Shown here: piece by piece, positions 2,100-51,925 of the stretch
Numbering within the stretch: position 1 is the stretch's first letter
Layout: each line of letters begins with the position of its first letter
Sequence record: MN882349.1
Length of the DNA stretch: 64,000 nucleotides
Strand: one strand, 5' to 3'
Source of the DNA: Escherichia phage Ec_Makalu_003
The notes under the pieces: model-generated
What the model saw: only the letters and a program-made list of their open reading frames with translations
What the model was told of the DNA's origin: nothing
Databases searched by the model: none
Translations under genes and position numbers: made by a program

Positions 2100-2160
2100 A
2101 ATGTTGTCCTCTCTTTGTTTTCGATGTGAGCATTATACATGAGCTAATCATGTTGTCAAC
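2100..2160 (-). promoter_or_regulatory. early promoter/stem-loop cassette copy B
   Basis: minus strand TTGACA, 16-nt palindromic spacer (ACATGA..TCATGT), TATAAT. Confidence 0.6.
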
Positions 2161-4604: not shown

Positions 4605-4662
4605 AATATAATCCTCTCGTTGTTAAGTGGGAGTATTATAGCATACTCCCTTCGCATGTCAA
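4605..4662 (-). promoter_or_regulatory. early promoter/stem-loop cassette copy C
   Basis: minus strand TTGACA-N16-TATAAT; palindrome GGGAGTA..TACTCCC encloses the -10. Confidence 0.6.
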
Positions 4663-9970: not shown

Positions 9971-10033
9971 AATATAATCCTCACATCGTTCATTTGATGC
10001 GGCTATTATAGGATAACCGCATTTTCATGTCAA
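9971..10033 (-). promoter_or_regulatory. early promoter/stem-loop cassette copy F
   Basis: minus strand TTGACA, imperfect palindrome GCGGCTAT..ATAACCGC enclosing TATAAT. Confidence 0.5.
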
Positions 10034-11044: not shown

Positions 11045-11282
11045 AGTTTACCCACTCAACAAGATCTTTACCTAACTCAAAAGCCCATTCTCGGTCTTGC
11101 TTTACGTTTTGTAGGTATGGACTTTCCGACACTCGACGAAGTGATGTTGTCGTAACAAGAATGACCCCATGAATGGTCGGATGCTCCTTACCATATACAA
11201 TCGGACGGGAATCCCTTTCGACACCTTGTAAGAAGGTGTATCCTGAATCATTCAGCAACAAATACATTTTCGGTTCGTTCAT
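10944..11282 (-). CDS. hypothetical protein
   Basis: 112-aa ORF. Confidence 0.4.
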   Translation of the reverse strand: MNEPKMYLLLNDSGYTFLQGVERDSRPIVYGKEHPTIHGVILVTTTSLRRVSESPYLQNVKQDREWAFELGKDLVEWVNCEDKNQRNHEKKIARLEHRRKLDEIKNRILQSM

Positions 11283-11542
11283 TACAGCTTCCTCAACCAG
11301 TTATTAAAGCGAGCAAACAATGATGCTTTTCGTGCTTCTTCTTCGGCTTTGCACGCACGCAAACCACTGAAACACCATTCATAATCATCACTGAAACATG
11401 ATTCAACAGGAACACCCGCATTTCGTAGTTCTCTGGTCGTTATCATAAATCCTTGACATAATGGGCGACCTTCAACAATGATAGGAAGTTTAACTTTTTT
11501 CATGAAAGTATACCCAGCACGGTCAATAATTTCAATCTTCAT
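11282..11542 (-). CDS. small protein, 'GY(T/S)FMK..LPIIVEGRP' family copy 1
   Basis: 86 aa; paralog of 11561..11764 and 14117..14338. Confidence 0.55.
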   Translation of the reverse strand: MKIEIIDRAGYTFMKKVKLPIIVEGRPLCQGFMITTRELRNAGVPVESCFSDDYEWCFSGLRACKAEEEARKASLFARFNNWLRKL

Positions 11543-11560
11543 AATATAATCCTCAATTAA

Positions 11561-11764
11561 TTACACTGCCCAGGCTTCTTTGCTAAGAAAACACCATTTA
11601 TACTCAGGAGAATAACCTTTAATCGCTACGCCAGCTTTTTGCAATTCCTGCGTTTCAACAACATAATCAAGCCCATACGGTCGACCTTCCACGATGATAG
11701 GAAGTTCAACGCCTTTCATGAAAGAATATCCGCCATCGTCAAAAATTTCAATTTTAATTTTCAT
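11561..11764 (-). CDS. small protein, same family copy 2
   Basis: 67 aa; 'GGYSFMKGVELPIIVEGRP'. Confidence 0.55.
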   Translation of the reverse strand: MKIKIEIFDDGGYSFMKGVELPIIVEGRPYGLDYVVETQELQKAGVAIKGYSPEYKWCFLSKEAWAV

Positions 11765-12009
11765 TTTACATTATCTCCATAGATCTTTCCATCAATATCA
11801 ATTTCACCAGCGCGAACATCTAGGATAAGATGCGGTAGGTGTATGTAGTTTTCCCACCCTACGCGCTTCATTTCTTCTACGGTAACGTAAGCCCACCCGT
11901 TCGCTGTAATAAAGTCTACTTCAACCTTGAGAGGAAAGCAAGACTTTTCTATGTCTTCGAATCCGACAATATGTTTTGTTGTTGAATATGGAATATATCC
12001 GGTGATCAT
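11761..12009 (-). CDS. hypothetical protein
   Basis: 82-aa ORF. Confidence 0.45.
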   Translation of the reverse strand: MITGYIPYSTTKHIVGFEDIEKSCFPLKVEVDFITANGWAYVTVEEMKRVGWENYIHLPHLILDVRAGEIDIDGKIYGDNVK

Positions 12010-12440
12010 TTTGTGATCTCCTTATACTCAACACACCATAAGCGGGTAGCCCATGATAAACGCTCATAACGCTGGCAGAAATCGGACCATAGATATTGTG
12101 CACCGTTCGGCATAGTTGAAATATGCGTTTTCTCTCCAACTTTCACGAAAGAAGTGTTCGATTTTGTGATCTCGACCGGAGTATATCCGAAAGCGGGTTC
12201 CAAGCCAACATCTGAACTAAATGCCAATTTAACAGAATTTGTTTTTCTAACCGCTGTCCGGTTTCCTTCTGGGTATAGCACAGCAGGTTTAGCGCCTAAG
12301 CGGATAAACTCACTATTTTTAATAAACAGAATATCATGATAACCGTCATATTCCGACACTTCCATAGTAACAGGAAAATCGACATGTTCTAAACCTGGTA
12401 GATCTCGCATATCATGAAATGTAGCCATCAACTTTTTCAT
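12006..12440 (-). CDS. hypothetical protein, paralog pair member
   Basis: 144 aa; segment 'ITKSN(T/M)SFVKVGE.THI(S/T)TM' shared with 12451..12696. Confidence 0.5.
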   Translation of the reverse strand: MKKLMATFHDMRDLPGLEHVDFPVTMEVSEYDGYHDILFIKNSEFIRLGAKPAVLYPEGNRTAVRKTNSVKLAFSSDVGLEPAFGYTPVEITKSNTSFVKVGEKTHISTMPNGAQYLWSDFCQRYERLSWATRLWCVEYKEITK

Positions 12441-12450
12441 CTTGTATTCC

Positions 12451-12696
12451 TCACTCTTCTGTAATTACTTCATATTCAATTTTCCACACATCAATCGCCC
12501 AGCTTAAAAGCTCATACGATTTACAGAAAGATGACCAAATATACTGTTTTCCGTGCATCGTTGTTATGTGTGTATGCTCGCCAACTTCAACGAAAGACAT
12601 ATTTGACTTTGTGATAACTATAGGAATGTGACCGAAAGGAGGCGGTATTACTGATTCGTTGGTCTTCATTCTATATTCCTCACTCTTCTGTTTCAT
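12451..12696 (-). CDS. hypothetical protein, paralog pair member
   Basis: 81 aa; shares 'VITKSNMSFVEVGEHTHITTM..W..FC..YE.LSWA' with its neighbour. Confidence 0.5.
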   Translation of the reverse strand: MKQKSEEYRMKTNESVIPPPFGHIPIVITKSNMSFVEVGEHTHITTMHGKQYIWSSFCKSYELLSWAIDVWKIEYEVITEE

Positions 12697-12916
12697 TTCT
12701 TTTATATGGTACTATAACAGGATTAAGACAGCAAGCACCAATTGCGTTATGAGCACCACAATTTAAACATTTATAATCATGGAACTTATTAAGGAATCGA
12801 CCGAACTCATAACCGACTAACGCCGCGTGCACTTGAGTCTCGATCTCATCCATATCAGCCAATGTTTTAACCTTCATAATATAATCCTCAAAGGGTAGTT
12901 TTGCGAAGATGGTCAT
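12680..12916 (-). CDS. hypothetical Cys-rich small protein
   Basis: 78 aa; 'CLNCGAHNAIGACC'. Confidence 0.4.
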   Translation of the reverse strand: MTIFAKLPFEDYIMKVKTLADMDEIETQVHAALVGYEFGRFLNKFHDYKCLNCGAHNAIGACCLNPVIVPYKRNETEE

Positions 12917-13178
12917 TACATGCTTTTAATGCATCAGTCGCTGTGTCATAACGAGTATTATCATAGCACCAGTAACCATCTATCAACTGATAAATTAATC
13001 CATCCTTTTTAGCTTCGATGAAAGACAATTCTTTGAAAGTTTCTACTTTCTTTGCTGATAATCCACGATCACGGCGCTTATAGAGTTTAGCTAAAATGCG
13101 TTCAGCTTGTTCCTCTTTATCACCAGACAGATCCCAAATAATGTTGCGGATATGTTTGATTAATTGTTCAGTGGTCAT
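12888..13178 (-). CDS. hypothetical protein
   Basis: 96-aa ORF with promoter cassette upstream. Confidence 0.5.
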   Translation of the reverse strand: MTTEQLIKHIRNIIWDLSGDKEEQAERILAKLYKRRDRGLSAKKVETFKELSFIEAKKDGLIYQLIDGYWCYDNTRYDTATDALKACNDHLRKTTL

Positions 13179-13235
13179 CTTTGATTCTCCTTAGTTGGTA
13201 TGCGTGCATTATAGCACTATGATTTTCATTGTCAA
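13179..13235 (-). promoter_or_regulatory. early promoter/stem-loop cassette copy H
   Basis: minus strand TTGACA-N16-TATAAT; short GTGC..GCAC stem. Confidence 0.5.
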
Positions 13236-13240
13236 CAACT

Positions 13241-13272
13241 AAAAACAAAAAAGGCTACCCCGAAGGATAGCC
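13241..13272 (-). terminator. rho-independent terminator after glycine-rich gene
   Basis: GGCTACCC-CGAA-GGATAGCC hairpin plus U-tract on minus strand. Confidence 0.6.
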
Positions 13273-13279
13273 CATAAAA

Positions 13280-14059
13280 TTACACGCGAGCACCGTAGAT
13301 CGTGCCTACTTTATCCCAGCGAGGGGCATTGCCAGTAACAGCCTTACCAGCCGCCCCGCCATTATATTCCGATCCCTGTCCACGGATATTACATTTACCA
13401 CCAGCACCGCCAGCATCACCACCGTTACCGCCATTATATACACCGTTGACAGACCCTTTACCTGGCGCGGAAATAGTACCAGCAGTAGCACCCCGTTCCA
13501 TATTAGCAGACCCTCCAGCAGCACCAAACGGACGACCGCCGCCACCACCAAAGGTTAATTTCATTTGTGACATAGGAGACCAGTATCCGCCGCCACCGCC
13601 GCCACCGCCACCGCAAATAGCGCCGTTATTTGTGATGCGTAAGCGTGTGCCTATACCGTTGTTAATTGCATTACCACCAGCACCACCAGCGGAGTTATTG
13701 CCACCATTACCACCACGCCCCCAAACATGAACACCGGGGTTAATGATCAATGTTACATATTCGTTTGTTAACGAGCTAGGGAAGTCAAGACAAGGAACGC
13801 CAGTAGAATGGGAAACAATATTACCTGTGATAGTAATTACTACCGGAGTAGATCCTTGTGCTTTCATCCAGTTAATAAGAGTGTCTTTATTGTAAGAGTC
13901 ACTAGCGCCAATGCTATAATGAATCTCTTTAGAGCGTCCGACCATCGCTGACATATACGCCGGACGGCCTAAGCGTACAGCTTGCATTGCGGCGCTCATC
14001 CACCGTTGACCTGTTTCTGATACGGCAGATGAACCGACCCACCCAGAAGATATTGCCAT
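13280..14059 (-). CDS. glycine-rich low-complexity protein of unknown function
   Basis: 259 aa; structured N-terminal ~110 aa, then GG(N/A)GG repeats including a run of nine Gly; local GC content visibly above neighbours. Confidence 0.6.
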   Translation of the reverse strand: MAISSGWVGSSAVSETGQRWMSAAMQAVRLGRPAYMSAMVGRSKEIHYSIGASDSYNKDTLINWMKAQGSTPVVITITGNIVSHSTGVPCLDFPSSLTNEYVTLIINPGVHVWGRGGNGGNNSAGGAGGNAINNGIGTRLRITNNGAICGGGGGGGGGYWSPMSQMKLTFGGGGGRPFGAAGGSANMERGATAGTISAPGKGSVNGVYNGGNGGDAGGAGGKCNIRGQGSEYNGGAAGKAVTGNAPRWDKVGTIYGARV

Positions 14060-14065
14060 AAAATT

Positions 14066-14094
14066 TCCTCACAAGAAAAGCCCCAATTAAGGGG
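14066..14094 (-). terminator. hairpin/terminator immediately upstream of glycine-rich gene
   Basis: GCCCC-TTAATT-GGGGC followed by UUUUCUU on minus strand, ending a few nt before the RBS. Confidence 0.45.
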
Positions 14095-14116
14095 CATTGT
14101 TGATTGATAATATTAC

Positions 14117-14338
14117 TTAGATGATCTCAGCTTCACCATTCAGGAAGAAAGACCAAGTTTTGTTTGGGTAACGACGCGCCCATGATTCGGCGGTTTTAAC
14201 ACCAGCTTCGAACAATTGACGGCTGGTTACTTTAGCCATACCATCTTCGATGGCAACGTTTTCAATAATCATCGGGTACTTAGCGCCACGCATGAAACCG
14301 AAGCCAGCGGAAGATTTGATAATTTTAACAGTTGCCAT
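14117..14338 (-). CDS. small protein, 'GF(G/S)FM..PxII' family copy 3
   Basis: 73 aa; 'SAGFGFMRGAKYPMIIENV' is related to 11282 and 11561 products. Confidence 0.5.
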   Translation of the reverse strand: MATVKIIKSSAGFGFMRGAKYPMIIENVAIEDGMAKVTSRQLFEAGVKTAESWARRYPNKTWSFFLNGEAEII

Positions 14339-14408
14339 TTTTGATTCTCCTAGAAAGTGTATCTCGTTTCGATGGGTGTATTATGCAATAACACCGGATC
14401 GCTGTCAA
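14339..14408 (-). promoter_or_regulatory. early promoter/stem-loop cassette copy I
   Basis: conserved RBS and leader; -35 TGTCAA (rc) at 14403-14408. Confidence 0.55.
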
Positions 14409-14427
14409 CACTTTCTAAGAAAATTTT

Positions 14428-14712
14428 TTAAACTAATCGAAGATAGCCCAGAATTTCAGCACCTTTAGCCAGACCTAAAACTTCCCAATCAAGGTCGCCG
14501 TAGTCATAATTTGCAACCATCAGTTCACCATTTTTCATGCAGCAATCATGAGAGAAAATTTGCCCTGCATAAACTACGATAGTAATAAACTTTCCTGATT
14601 CTGGCGGTGTGGAAGACAAAGCGACCATATGACCATTCAGCTTAGTCACCAGTGACGGAACAATAAAATTCGGGCTTACCTGAATGCCGTTAAATTCGTT
14701 TGTGTCTTTCAT
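14428..14712 (-). CDS. hypothetical protein
   Basis: 94-aa ORF. Confidence 0.45.
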   Translation of the reverse strand: MKDTNEFNGIQVSPNFIVPSLVTKLNGHMVALSSTPPESGKFITIVVYAGQIFSHDCCMKNGELMVANYDYGDLDWEVLGLAKGAEILGYLRLV

Positions 14713-15059
14713 GCCATACCCCTTAAAACACTAATAGCATAATCATGCTGGTTATTCATAATATCAATTGCATTGTGATAACGAGCTAAACCATCAAGGA
14801 TAAATTCTTGTTTATCTTGTTTCAGCTTAGTATCACGCGCAGCCATAAGAGCATCGAGAACAGGTCCAAAGAGATTGTCCAATTCATCTTCGGTTGCAAT
14901 GTTTCCTATTGCCTCGTCGATCCGTGATTCTAATGCTTGCTTTTCGTTGATCACTTGCTGGGTGTATTCCAGAACATCAAGAATATCGCGGGTAACGTCG
15001 CCGTGATAAGGTATTCCCGCATGAAGATGATCAATTAATCGCTGAATATCAATGTTCAA
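14709..15059 (-). CDS. hypothetical protein
   Basis: 116-aa ORF. Confidence 0.45.
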   Translation of the reverse strand: MNIDIQRLIDHLHAGIPYHGDVTRDILDVLEYTQQVINEKQALESRIDEAIGNIATEDELDNLFGPVLDALMAARDTKLKQDKQEFILDGLARYHNAIDIMNNQHDYAISVLRGMA

Positions 15060-15394
15060 TTGTAGCCCTCCTCTGAAAGTACATCCCAGATCGTTGCGTC
15101 AAGGTGCATTAAATTCCACATAATAGAATCATAACTACCTAAGCCAGAAGTAAAAATTACATCACACTGGCGATAGGTCTTATGAAAATCGGTGGCTGTC
15201 TCGGCATCAATCGGCATATCGTCACCGGAAAGCACCAGACATTTAAGAATCATAACCCTGTTAGCCGTTGGCGCTTGCTTAGTCTTTTCAGCATATTTTT
15301 CGATGATCCGTTTTGCCTTCTCTTCTTTGATACGTCCAGACCAAATCCGGTTTCGGTATTGATTCATAATAATTTCAATCACATCATTTTGCAT
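15056..15394 (-). CDS. hypothetical protein
   Basis: 112-aa ORF. Confidence 0.45.
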   Translation of the reverse strand: MQNDVIEIIMNQYRNRIWSGRIKEEKAKRIIEKYAEKTKQAPTANRVMILKCLVLSGDDMPIDAETATDFHKTYRQCDVIFTSGLGSYDSIMWNLMHLDATIWDVLSEEGYN

Positions 15395-15593: not shown

Positions 15594-15651
15594 TTTGATT
15601 CTCCTTTGTTGTCGATGTGTGCATTATGCTATACTATATTCCGGTTGTCAA
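15594..15651 (-). promoter_or_regulatory. early promoter/stem-loop cassette copy J
   Basis: conserved RBS/leader; -35 TGTCAA (rc) at 15646-15651. Confidence 0.5.
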
Positions 15652-15659
15652 CACCTAAA

Positions 15660-15692
15660 AACGAAAAAGCCACCCTTTCGGATGGCTTTTGA
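15660..15692 (-). terminator. rho-independent terminator
   Basis: AGCCACCC-TTTC-GGATGGCT hairpin with flanking T/A runs. Confidence 0.55.
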
Positions 15693-16642: not shown

Positions 16643-16650
16643 TATTTATA
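16643..16650 (-). promoter_or_regulatory. late-promoter-like TATAAATA upstream of rI-like gene
   Basis: minus-strand TATAAATA about 34 nt upstream of the ATG, inside a stem-loop. Confidence 0.4.
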
Positions 16651-42142: not shown

Positions 42143-42170
42143 TTGACAATCTTGTCTGATAAGGTATAAT
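42143..42170 (+). promoter_or_regulatory. near-consensus sigma70 promoter driving the cassette
   Basis: TTGACA (42143-42148), 16-nt spacer, TATAAT (42165-42170); GGAGG RBS follows. Confidence 0.65.
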
Positions 42171-44543: not shown

Positions 44544-46342
44544 AACAATTAATTAATATCGGTAACGTTGTTGATGACGGTACAGGTGATTATCTAAGAA
44601 AAGGTGGTCAAAAGATTAATGACAACTTTTCTGAACTTTATACTAAGCTGGGGGATGGTGATATCCCTCATGCATCCGGCGCGTGGAAAACTCACACACA
44701 ACCAGTATTAAAACCAAATTTTGGTGATGCATGGGCGATTAATACAACGAACAACGCTGTTTCTGTTGAATTGCCTAAAGGAAGCGCGAGTGATTATAAT
44801 AAAACAATTAAACTTCGTGATGTTTGGCGCTCATGGGCTGCACATAACGTAACGTTGAAGCCAGCACAAGGTGATACCATTAAGGGATCTCCAATCGACC
44901 GTGAGTTGTATAAAGATTTCATGGATGTTGAATTGGTTTATTGTGCGCCTGGACGTTGGGAATATGTCGAAAATAAACGAGTAGATACTATCACCACTTC
45001 CGATTTAAGCACAGTTGCCAAAGAAGTTTATATTGCAACCGAAGGACAAACAGACTTCCCTAATGTTTTTGGTTCCAATACTTACAATATTCGAAATGTT
45101 GAAGTGTATTATCGCGGTAACTTGCTTTATTATGGCAAGGATTTAACCGATGATTCTAACTATGGTTCAATCGGTGAAAACGGTGATATTGTTCCGCTGG
45201 ACGGTAAAAGCATTAAATTACGCTTCCCTTGTTCGGCTGGTGATACCATTCAAATCATAACTTATATGGACGGTATCGCATCCTTCCGGTCAAGCTATAT
45301 TACTCATACAATCCGCGTTTATGAAACAGGAATGACCACTTTGGAATCCATCCCCGGTGAAGTTTGGGTTGGTGAACTAGCTAATAAGAAAGAATTTACT
45401 AATGCTGAATTAGGCGTAAGTAAGCGAGATCTTATTAATCCAAATTCATTTGAATTGCTGATCAACGGCACACAAATGATTAAAGCGGGTGATGCGGATT
45501 TACCTTCCTTTATTTGTGAAGGCGCTGACGGTGAAACGGAAGAAACCTGCGTACTTGCTGGCGGTCAATGGGTGGAATCTGGGGAAGATTATTCATTGAT
45601 GTTCGACGAAAACAGCGTGGTGACTGGTATTAAATTATCTAAAGCACTAGATAACCGAGATACTATCACAATTCGCTGGTTTAATAATGATATCGGAACA
45701 TTAATGGAATGGGACGGTGTAGGCGGTATTAAAGAAAAAGCAGATAAAATCTATCTTAATAACGAAGATGAAGTTACTCTGACAAATCGAATTGAATATA
45801 CCGATTTCCAAAATCCAAGCCAAGCAACTAAACGCCCAATGGAAGATTATACAGGTCGTGTGATGGATATCTATTCCATATTCGATATTTTCTATCCTAT
45901 AGGCACAATTTATGAAAATGCGCATAACCCAGCTAACCCAGCGACATATATGGGATTTGGTACATGGGTACGTTATGCAGAAAAAGAATTTTTAGTTGGT
46001 TGGTCTTCTGACGCAAGCGATCAAAACTTCGCACTAAACAACAACGATCTTGATACACATGGTCAACCTACACACACCGCAGGTGGTAACGGTGGTGATG
46101 TTGCATACCAGATCAAGAAAAATATGATTCCTGAATTACAGAGCGACGTTCGGGTTCTTGTAAAAGATGATAACGGAAATATTATCATTGGTGGTTGTCA
46201 GGTAGACCCTGATGCAGTAGGTCCAGCGTTTACCAAATATCGAGAAGATAATGTTAAAGTTAATCAGGGAAATACCGACCCATCAATGATTGGTATTCTT
46301 CCTCCATACAGAACTGTCTATCGTTGGCTAAGGGTAGGTTAA
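44540..46342 (+). CDS. 10: baseplate wedge protein gp10
   Basis: 600 aa; canonical order. Confidence 0.85.
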   Translation: MKQLINIGNVVDDGTGDYLRKGGQKINDNFSELYTKLGDGDIPHASGAWKTHTQPVLKPNFGDAWAINTTNNAVSVELPKGSASDYNKTIKLRDVWRSWAAHNVTLKPAQGDTIKGSPIDRELYKDFMDVELVYCAPGRWEYVENKRVDTITTSDLSTVAKEVYIATEGQTDFPNVFGSNTYNIRNVEVYYRGNLLYYGKDLTDDSNYGSIGENGDIVPLDGKSIKLRFPCSAGDTIQIITYMDGIASFRSSYITHTIRVYETGMTTLESIPGEVWVGELANKKEFTNAELGVSKRDLINPNSFELLINGTQMIKAGDADLPSFICEGADGETEETCVLAGGQWVESGEDYSLMFDENSVVTGIKLSKALDNRDTITIRWFNNDIGTLMEWDGVGGIKEKADKIYLNNEDEVTLTNRIEYTDFQNPSQATKRPMEDYTGRVMDIYSIFDIFYPIGTIYENAHNPANPATYMGFGTWVRYAEKEFLVGWSSDASDQNFALNNNDLDTHGQPTHTAGGNGGDVAYQIKKNMIPELQSDVRVLVKDDNGNIIIGGCQVDPDAVGPAFTKYREDNVKVNQGNTDPSMIGILPPYRTVYRWLRVG

Positions 46343-51184: not shown

Positions 51185-51925
51185 ATGTTTAACAACACTC
51201 TTTTTGCTCGCCTTGAATCGCAAAAGGATTATGAGAATACACGACAAACCGAGATTCTCAATCCTTATGTGAACTTCAATAGGCATACTAATACCCAGAC
51301 GTTAGCCGACGTTATGGTCGCTGAAGCTATTCAGATGCGAGGTGTAGAATTATATTACATCCCTCGTGAATTTGTCAAACCAGACATGATCTTTGGCGAG
51401 GATGTTCAAAGCAAATTTACTAAAGCATGGAAATTTGCGGCTTATATTAACTCATTTGATGGGTATGAAGGAGCGGGGAATTTCTTCTCTAGTTTCGGTT
51501 ATCAAGCCAATGATGAACTAACTTTTACGGTTAACCCCAACCTATTCAAGCATCAAGTAGATGATCAAGAGCCAAAATCAGGTGACTTGATTTATATTCC
51601 AATGAGTAATGATTTATTTGAAATTAATTACGTTGAGCCATATCAGCCGTTTTTTCAGGCTGGCAAAAATGCTATGCGTAAAATTATTGCAGAGAAATTC
51701 GTGTATAGCGGTGAGGAATTGCGACCAGAATTACAACGCAACGAGGGAATTAATGTTGATGAGTTTGCGGATCTGGATCTTGCACCGATCACTAATCTGG
51801 ACGGGTTAACAGATATCAACTTAGATCAGTACAAAGAAGATAAGCAATTCAGAAGCGAAGGACAAGATTTTATTGATCCGTTTGATCCTATTAATGGCAA
51901 GGGTTCACCTTTCGCCGATTTTTGA
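51185..51925 (+). CDS. 14: neck protein gp14
   Basis: 246 aa; canonical order. Confidence 0.8.

Follow-up and report, generated by a model that had tools for sequence, protein, structure and literature searches.

The receptor-binding tip of the long tail fibres of T-even-type phages is the well-known protein gp38, and the accounts given in Trojet 2011 and in PMC12032242, which summarizes the S16 structure, describe an N-terminal domain that docks on the tip of gp37, glycine-rich motifs (GRMs) that form a polyglycine-II sandwich, and hypervariable segments (HVSs) whose loops contact the receptor. The structure of Salmonella phage S16 gp38 (PDB 6F45 chain D; Dunne et al. 2018) is one reference for this family. 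In RB49, the type phage of Krischvirus, the displacement of g38 has been published (Trojet 2011), reports of 2025 and 2026 mention it once more for Krischvirus (PMC12032242; bioRxiv 10.64898/2026.04.02.716166), and host-range mutants map to gp38 E230K/Y231S (PMC9569957). The GRMs are regarded as recombination hot spots (PMC12032242), and engineered swaps exchange gp38 "from HVS2 onwards" (bioRxiv 10.64898/2026.04.02.716166). Another known system that bears on the locus studied here is the PeSL element of RB49 and phi1, which consists of a stem-loop terminator, a T-rich spacer and a near-perfect sigma-70 promoter and lies between ORFs of the hyperplastic region (Arbiol 2010; Comeau 2014); g38 is not mentioned in the PeSL papers.

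We analysed a window of 64,000 nucleotides (the whole stretch of DNA under study) from Escherichia phage Ec_Makalu_003 (MN882349.1), a phage of Krischvirus gec3s, in which an earlier note had described the product of the gene now identified as g38 (Table 1) as a glycine-rich low-complexity protein. The reading frame, which starts with ATG, was confirmed to be a genuine protein-coding gene by its Pfam, PHROG and PDB matches. The product matched two family models over their full length and above the curated cut-off of 25 bits that applies to each, namely PF05268 (GP38; 5e-72, 242.7 bits, profile positions 1-218 of 218) and PF21721 (Gp38_N; 3.9e-18, 65.6 bits, profile positions 1-40 of 40), and it also matched PHROG 2056, "tail fiber protein; host specificity" (2.7e-101), and S16 gp38 (6f45_D; E 4e-50, residues 1-257). 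The Escherichia phage Ec_Makalu_001 protein was 100% identical to it, and the identity with those of GEC-3S and its relatives was 96-98%; all these phages belong to Krischvirus gec3s. The protein is the gp38 tip of T-even-type long tail fibres and not an anonymous low-complexity protein; the richness in glycine was described correctly, but the anonymity and low complexity were not, since the glycine motifs are the conserved structural core of a gp38 adhesin. We consider it highly probable that this ORF is the adhesin gene g38 of a phage of the RB49-like kind (Krischvirus gec3s), with the function, role of the glycine run, location and expression set out below.

Table 1. Features of the g38 locus of Ec_Makalu_003 (positions in the window)
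Feature	Position	Strand	Basis
g38 CDS, 259 aa, T2/S16-type long-tail-fibre adhesin (receptor-recognising protein gp38)	13280..14059	minus	ORF list, Pfam, PHROG, PDB
N-terminal attachment domain, aa 1-40, predicted to dock on gp37 tip	13940..14059	minus	Pfam Gp38_N; role from literature
Predicted beta-helix and polyglycine-II sandwich region, aa 45-259	13283..13927	minus	Pfam GP38; conservation in 105 homologues; AlphaFold2; TM
Specificity module HVS2-HVS4, JK38/T6-like (Tsx-type), unlike the RB49 module	13340..13615	minus	Informative sites, protein alignment
(GGN)9 tract, nine Gly, aa 150-158	13586..13612	minus	Codons, TRF, homologue alignment
RBS GAGGA, 6 nt before ATG	14066..14070	minus	Sequence; annotated RBS in MN894885
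Upstream stem-loop SL1, GCCCC-TTAATT-GGGGC + TTTTCTT	14070..14095 (hairpin 14095..14080)	minus	Folding, conservation
Downstream stem-loop SL2, GGGCTATCC-TTCG-GGGTAGCC + T run	13242..13273 (13273..13252)	minus	Folding; annotated terminator in both GenBank records
Present/absent segment, SL1 + RBS + g38 + SL2, 878 bp	13239..14116	minus	Comparison with empty-site Krischvirus genomes
Perfect sigma-70 early promoter, TTGACA-16-TATAAT with TG, for the next gene	13208..13235	minus	Sequence
73-aa ORF, function not assigned, immediately upstream of g38; small local paralogue family	14117..14338	minus	ORF list
Nearest upstream promoter, TTGACA-17-CATAAT, before the 73-aa ORF	14380..14408	minus	Sequence; annotated promoter in GEC-3S
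PeSL-type element: 11-bp stem-loop, T run, TTGACA-17-CATAAT	15623..15690	minus	Sequence; annotated terminator and promoter in GEC-3S
Nearest same-strand T4-type late promoter motif, TATAAATA, before rI, 2.6 kb upstream of g38	16643..16650	minus	Motif search

Structure prediction pointed in the same direction. The AlphaFold2 model, for which the input alignment held 59 homologues, had a mean pLDDT of 94.1, and in a Foldseek comparison it agreed with S16 gp38 (TM 0.83/0.86) and with gp38 of phage PP01 (9v85_C; TM 0.76/0.87), the search of the PDB returning nothing below an E value of 1 besides gp38 structures. The model is predicted to comprise an N-terminal attachment domain, a beta-helix and a polyglycine-II sandwich. 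The protein resembles S16 gp38 over its full length, with the same order of attachment domain, beta-helix and GRMs with variable loops and with ICGGGGGGG in both, whereas the identity is 44%, the hypervariable loops are different, and g38 of Ec_Makalu_003 is not adjacent to g37. The gp37 of Ec_Makalu_001 (980 aa, beyond the window) has a self-cleaving C-terminal chaperone domain (Peptidase_S74, 872-931) and also matches the S16 gp37 tip fragment 6f45_A, and is the partner expected for a T2/S16-type adhesin. The GenBank records of RB49, JSE, GEC-3S, PHB13, JEP8 and ELT4 carry names such as "distal long tail fiber assembly catalyst" and "tail assembly protein", which would make the product a T4-type gp38 chaperone and not a virion adhesin. 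This reading is barely credible, because the matches are to the adhesin family and to the crystal structure of S16 gp38 on the gp37 tip, because Trojet 2011 describes the T2/T6-type gp38 adhesin and the T4 form of this gene as unrelated, and because the RB49 host-range mutations fall in gp38 (PMC9569957). As an adhesin, one gp38 monomer would cap each long tail fibre: the gp37 C-terminal chaperone domain would cleave itself off, the gp38 N-terminal domain would then dock on the trimeric gp37 tip, the GRMs would pack as a three-layer polyglycine-II sandwich, and the hypervariable segments would form the loops that touch the outer-membrane receptor of the host.

The distribution of glycine agreed with the earlier description of about 110 ordinary residues followed by a glycine-rich part, as residues 1-113 contain 10 glycines and residues 114-259 contain 50. 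The region of aa 45-259 comprises five GRMs with four HVSs in between, and a conserved C-terminal tail is also present. In a set of 105 full-length homologues with 46-97% identity, the conserved blocks were GRGGNGG, G7-9, GGGGGRPFG, GGxGG..G.AGG and GGAAG, and the stretches between them were unconserved. The nine-glycine run, which is the second GRM by sequence order, was 7-9 residues long in 97 of the 105 homologues, with a mode of nine (55/105), and its first seven positions were at least 95% conserved; a length of 7-10 covered 99 homologues, and the remaining six had 4 or 6. Because of these conserved blocks and the conserved run of 7-9 glycines, the glycine-rich region can be regarded as a structural core, and in the predicted model the motifs are what forms the polyglycine-II core.

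The earlier note had also placed a perfect GGN run at 13587-13613 and pointed out that it could vary in length by slippage without changing the frame. Nine consecutive glycines encoded by GGN codons were confirmed, but the tract lies one base away from that position and is not a pure repeat, since its codons are mixed (GGT GGC GGT GGC GGC GGT GGC GGC GGA); TRF detected a 9-nt unit in 2.6 copies with a 100% match and a 3-nt unit in 9.3 copies with a 76% match. A proline-rich ORF of 142 aa is present on the plus strand at 13302-13730; it was rejected as a gene, being the mere complement of the GGN codons. Repeat-length comparison across relatives did reveal variation: in the cluster of 90% identity, nine glycines were found in 13 of the 14 full-length members and also in a fifteenth member, a fragment of 185 aa, and the other full-length member, P0127, had seven, its two missing glycines corresponding to the loss of one GGTGGC unit. 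Since one of 15 close relatives has seven glycines and the family range is 7-10, in-frame change of the tract length exists but is rare and bounded. These same observations, namely the exact GGTGGC deficit in P0127, the family range and the 9-nt unit detected by TRF, could be taken to indicate a slippage-prone contingency repeat, in which high-frequency variation of the protein length would diversify the adhesin. We regard such a repeat as very improbable, because nine glycines are retained by nearly all of the cluster and are the mode across the far broader homologue set, because the gene length is equal in the 14 closest phage records, because the first seven glycines are so strongly conserved and the codons are mixed, and because the diversity sits in the hypervariable segments outside the tract, with substitutions among close relatives concentrated in HVS2 and HVS3. 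The frequent variation in repeat number among close isolates that characterizes a simple-sequence contingency locus was not observed, and the behaviour of the tract appears to be that of a conserved motif, at which recombination joins alleles, instead of a hypervariable slippage tract.

The role as a junction is suggested by a column-wise comparison of aligned g38 alleles using informative sites. The RB49 gene (product AAL15128) occupies the same locus, with the same flanking hairpins and promoters, and shares 93-98% DNA identity with the Ec_Makalu_003 gene in columns 61-300 and at the 3' end, whereas the HVS2-HVS4 module is just 50-70% identical, with NRGRLVF in RB49 where Ec_Makalu_003 has YWSPMSQMKLTF and with a 4-residue insertion in HVS3. 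The module is instead near-identical to that of Tequatrovirus phage JK38 (83-92% DNA identity) and close to that of T6, the gp38 proteins of which are Tsx-specific; these phages are unlike Ec_Makalu_003 in carrying g38 between g37 and the holin gene and in attachment-domain residues 1-44. Site by site, the allele was RB49-like in columns 61-330 (67:1), mixed in columns 331-450, JK38-like from column 451 to about 750 (81:12) and RB49-like again in columns 751-810 (16:0), and the switch to JK38-like sites at columns 451-480 coincided with the (GGN)9 tract (columns 454-480). The g38 of phage kvi was reciprocal, being RB49-like only in columns 481-720 (89:4) and having ends of the T-even type. On these site patterns, Ec_Makalu_003 and kvi represent two independent mosaics whose left breakpoints both lie at (GGN)9 and whose right ones both lie near the last GRM, and the (GGN)9 tract is the apparent left breakpoint of the swapped specificity module in both, in agreement with the view of GRMs as recombination hot spots. 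At the DNA level, the nine-glycine run may supply the conserved homology for exchange of the specificity module between g38 alleles, and the Ec_Makalu_003 allele would be an RB49-type attachment half joined to a JK38/T6-like specificity module.

The predicted receptor of Ec_Makalu_003 is Tsx, since HVS2-4 are near-identical to those of JK38, which is reported to be Tsx/Kdo-dependent (bioRxiv 10.64898/2026.04.02.716166), and close to those of T6. This would set the phage apart from RB49, for which the reported receptor is OmpA or O-antigens (PMC9569957; bioRxiv 10.64898/2026.04.02.716166). Two reports weigh against the assignment: a single HVS substitution, Q206L in RB68, can switch the receptor (bioRxiv 10.64898/2026.04.02.716166), and RB49-like gp38 proteins can use O-antigens too (PMC9569957).

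To the eye, the composition of g38 also stands out, and the earlier note had taken its higher local GC content as a suggestion of acquisition. The GC content is indeed higher, g38 as a whole having 0.505 and its C-terminal half 0.55 compared with 0.409 for the window, but its use as a sign of foreign origin was ruled out by codon-position analysis: the GC3 of 0.373 falls within the range of the neighbours (0.30-0.45), the GC of non-glycine codons is 0.42, and the preference among glycine codons (GGT > GGC) is the same as in the neighbours. The high GC of g38 is due to its 60 GGN codons. Besides the GC difference, a recent foreign acquisition would fit with the location of g38 away from the tail-fibre cluster, the empty site in some relatives and the similarity of the HVS2-4 module to a Tequatrovirus allele. 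It is nonetheless an unlikely explanation, not only because of the codon-position data but also because the gene and its flanks are kept at this site in RB49, phi1, JSE, GEC-3S and about 43 records, so that the placement is taken to be old, and because the exchange is limited to the internal specificity module, with related phages of similar composition as the source. The gene is nevertheless, as far as comparison of alleles and genomes indicates, mosaic and displaced; it is this comparative evidence, and not the composition, that points to it.

The displaced position of g38 is between tk/rI and dam, in the hyperplastic region of early genes and on the early strand. It does not lie directly downstream of g37, which is its usual though not its defining place; in MN894885, g37 ends at 154091 and g38 occupies 45079-45858, about 55 kb away, and the usual place between g37 and the holin gene is taken by a 79-aa ORF. 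About 43 phage records have g38 at the Ec_Makalu_003 site; for at least 13 records from Krischvirus, the match is confined to the flanks. The 73-aa ORF, which itself had no match in a Pfam search, is followed directly after its stop codon by TTGTTGACA in kvi, G5211 and UPWr_E1, and the junction is identical in all three; from this identical empty-site junction, the 878-bp segment can be defined as the present/absent unit. The kvi g38 (259 aa) directly follows a different g37, 40% identical to the Makalu gp37, and precedes the same 79-aa ORF, and ten bases past its stop codon is AAAAAGAATTAA, which matches the last codons of RB49-type g37. This short remnant suggests that the canonical g37-g38 arrangement in kvi-type phages may be a secondary import. 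Each genome has one g38, at either site, the empty site described here going with g38 next to g37 in kvi, and the same either-site pattern was found for FL15/FL20 versus FL37/FL38. Krischvirus has two mutually exclusive g38 placements.

With respect to the flanks of the gene, the terminator hairpins that had been noted on both sides were found to be present, SL1 5' of the RBS and SL2 3' of the gene, and they differ in strength. SL1, with 5 bp, a centroid of -11.2 kcal/mol and a z score of -1.8, is a weak terminator or attenuator by prediction, with no promoter attached; it does not vary among GEC-3S, RB49, Brandy and kaaroe. The canonical g37-g38 junctions of kvi and teqsoen likewise have a hairpin immediately before the RBS of g38, and this shared layout means that a hairpin before g38 does not preclude expression. 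SL2, with 9 bp, a UUCG loop, -14.7 kcal/mol and a z score of -3.5, none of the shuffles folding equally well, is predicted to be a strong intrinsic terminator that closes the g38 unit. Together with the promoter at 13235..13208, it is a putative PeSL-type composite. Perfect TTGACA-N16-18-TATAAT sites numbered six in the window against 0.08 expected, and the same layout of hairpin, T run and promoter recurs near 2159. An Rfam scan of 12800-14500 gave just a chance-level ryfA hit (15 bits against a threshold of 80 bits).

The right flank of g38 has the PeSL layout, in which a stem-loop terminator is followed by a stretch rich in AT or T and then by a sigma-70 promoter close to the consensus, and which is repeated in hyperplastic regions, and the presence/absence polymorphism at g38 falls exactly at such an element. 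The likeness to the RB49/phi1 elements is not complete: the left flank has a stem-loop without a promoter, SL1, the nearest promoter lying upstream of the 73-aa ORF; the SL2 stem does not have the typical GGGG...CCCC; and the g38 segment is known here from sequence, whereas mini-circles, excised when flanking PeSLs recombine, are known from the RB49/phi1 work, where inverse PCR was applied to infected cells (Arbiol 2010).

The arrangement of these signals bears on when and how g38 is transcribed, which the earlier note had called unclear and which is so from the sequence, given that no late promoter motif occurs within 2.6 kb. Searches of the coding strand at 14060-14700 for TATAAATA, for the 7-mer ATAAATA and for one-mismatch variants found none, and neither TATAAATA nor ATAAATA occurs on the g38 strand between g38 and the site ending at 16650; a dedicated late promoter was rejected on this basis, as the T4-type motif (T/A)ATAAATA is missing shortly upstream of g38. 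The published RB49 late-promoter predictions agree in having none near g38 (Nolan 2006), and the motif before rI corresponds to Pl:48756 of RB49 (Nolan 2006, Additional file 5). Escape from RegB by means of an RBS without GGAG was considered as well and was not discriminating, because 8 of 17 neighbouring genes are also without GGAG. A literature search for transcript or protein data on g38 of Ec_Makalu_003 or RB49 and for Krischvirus/RB49 transcriptomes returned nothing relevant.

The strong terminators at 15690-15665 and 13273-13252 enclose two near-consensus sigma-70 promoters (15651 and 14408), five small ORFs, SL1 and g38. The PeSL-type element at 15623..15690 opens an early unit of about 2.4 kb, of which g38 is the last gene, and the promoter at 14380..14408 drives the 73-aa ORF and, through read-through of SL1, probably g38. 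In our proposal, to which we give about an even chance, g38 would most likely be transcribed as the last gene of this unit from the two sigma-70 early promoters by read-through of the weak SL1, the 878-bp segment being flanked by a weak stem-loop on one side and by a strong terminator-promoter of the PeSL type on the other. A virion protein made solely from early promoters would be unusual for a T4-type phage. The main alternative, which we hold to be possible though not probable, is genuine late expression, in which transcription of g38 would start at the rI late promoter instead of the early ones and would read through two terminators. Virion proteins of the T4 type are normally late, and the motif at 16643-16650, predicted as a late promoter in RB49, is the only TATAAATA/ATAAATA on the strand within 2.6 kb. 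Such a transcript must, however, cross the terminator with an 11-bp stem at 15690-15665 plus SL1, and downstream of that terminator, before g38 is reached, come the two near-consensus sigma-70 promoters. Read-through of SL1 from the early unit would be the most economical reading.

The literature already covers the gp38 family, its polyglycine fold, its modular build of GRMs and HVSs, and the displacement of the gene in RB49-like phages, and in these respects the present analysis contains no new biology. What it adds is that the composition of g38 is no sign of acquisition, that the glycine run is a conserved motif and apparent recombination junction, and that empty-site alleles define an 878-bp unit. 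The reciprocal mosaics with a left breakpoint at (GGN)9 appear to offer a compact natural illustration of GRMs as recombination junctions. As gp38 is the main host-range determinant in most T-even-type coliphages, recognition of its modules is useful for phage therapy and receptor prediction. Furthermore, we tentatively raise the idea, itself rather unlikely, that the adhesin of RB49-type phages may have become uncoupled from late transcription, by way of early promoters and an attenuating stem-loop, and that its gene may constitute a self-contained module, with a stem-loop at either end, inside a hyperplastic region rich in PeSLs. Consistent with this idea, kvi-type genomes have a clean empty site and carry a chimeric g38 next to g37. 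If it is true, host-range determinants could be moved or lost as a cassette.

The g38 site of Ec_Makalu_003, which encodes the adhesin gp38, was found to be empty in at least 13 Krischvirus genomes, in which the counterpart of window 13239-14116 is vacant. The junction was the same in all three empty sites inspected (kvi, L003 2826-2886, and the two loci L011 and L012), reading TAA/TTGTTGACA-CGGGGAGAAATCCCCG-TATAAT, and in these three its promoter spacer encloses a G4...C4 stem-loop. Since the junctions are identical, the sequences point to one single past event behind the empty g38 site.

Perfect sigma-70 consensus promoters numbered six in the window against 0.08 expected by chance, and a GC hairpin followed by a T run lies directly before those at 2159 and 13235, resembling the promoter-early stem-loop (PeSL) arrangement of stem-loop terminator, T-rich stretch and sigma-70 promoter. 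The small ORFs of unknown function near g38 group into local paralogue families, and each ORF flanking g38, on the left and on the right, has a nearby paralogue. A 142-aa proline-rich ORF antisense to g38 (13302-13730, plus strand) was rejected as a gene, because it arises from the complement of the GGN codons.

Coordinates of promoters, small ORF families and the conserved 'Dc5' ORF
Feature	Location	Strand	Remark
Perfect sigma-70 promoters	window 2132-2159, 4635-4662, 10005-10033, 13208-13235, 51349-51378	-	
Perfect sigma-70 promoter	window 42143-42170	+	
o67/o86 and o73	window 11282-11542, 11561-11764, 14117-14338		o67/o86 paralogues, E 1e-21; o73 to o86, E 2e-7
o144/o81	window 12006-12440, 12451-12696		paralogues, E 2e-26
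o96/o112b	window 12888-13178, 15056-15394		paralogues, E 5e-4
79-aa ORF 'Dc5'	L005 16133-16372 (Ec_Makalu_001); L006 9142-9381 (kvi)		conserved

Within the adhesin, the nine-Gly run (aa 150-158) is shortened to seven Gly in P0127 (HGU0232797.1), a gp38 that is encoded in an E. coli assembly and is almost identical to this allele. Of the 15 listed members of the cluster, P0127 alone differs in length. In the GenBank records AY343333, EU863408, HE978309, MK573636, MT764208 and OM803178, the adhesin bears a name transferred from the unrelated T4 gp38 chaperone, either 'distal long tail fiber assembly catalyst' or 'tail assembly protein'; the Cognac, Brandy and KFS-EC records label it 'hypothetical protein'. 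The GEC-3S record HE978309 also carries a 'minus_10_signal' feature of 996 bp covering most of g38 (L001 5683-6678), evidently a coordinate error of the deposited annotation.

In the tail-fibre region of kvi (L006 5493-9381), g37 immediately precedes g38 and is a replaced version, with 40% identity to Makalu gp37. The 'Dc5' ORF, for which no Pfam match was obtained, lies in both genome layouts with the adhesin or g37 on one side and the holin gene on the other. The kvi gp38 is a chimera, in which an RB49-type specificity module of hypervariable segments 2-4 (93-96% DNA identity) is placed between T-even-type ends. Furthermore, AAAAAGAATTAA, located 10 nt past the kvi g38 stop codon, matches the 3' end of RB49-type g37, and this remnant suggests that the g37-g38 module of kvi was acquired by a secondary import.
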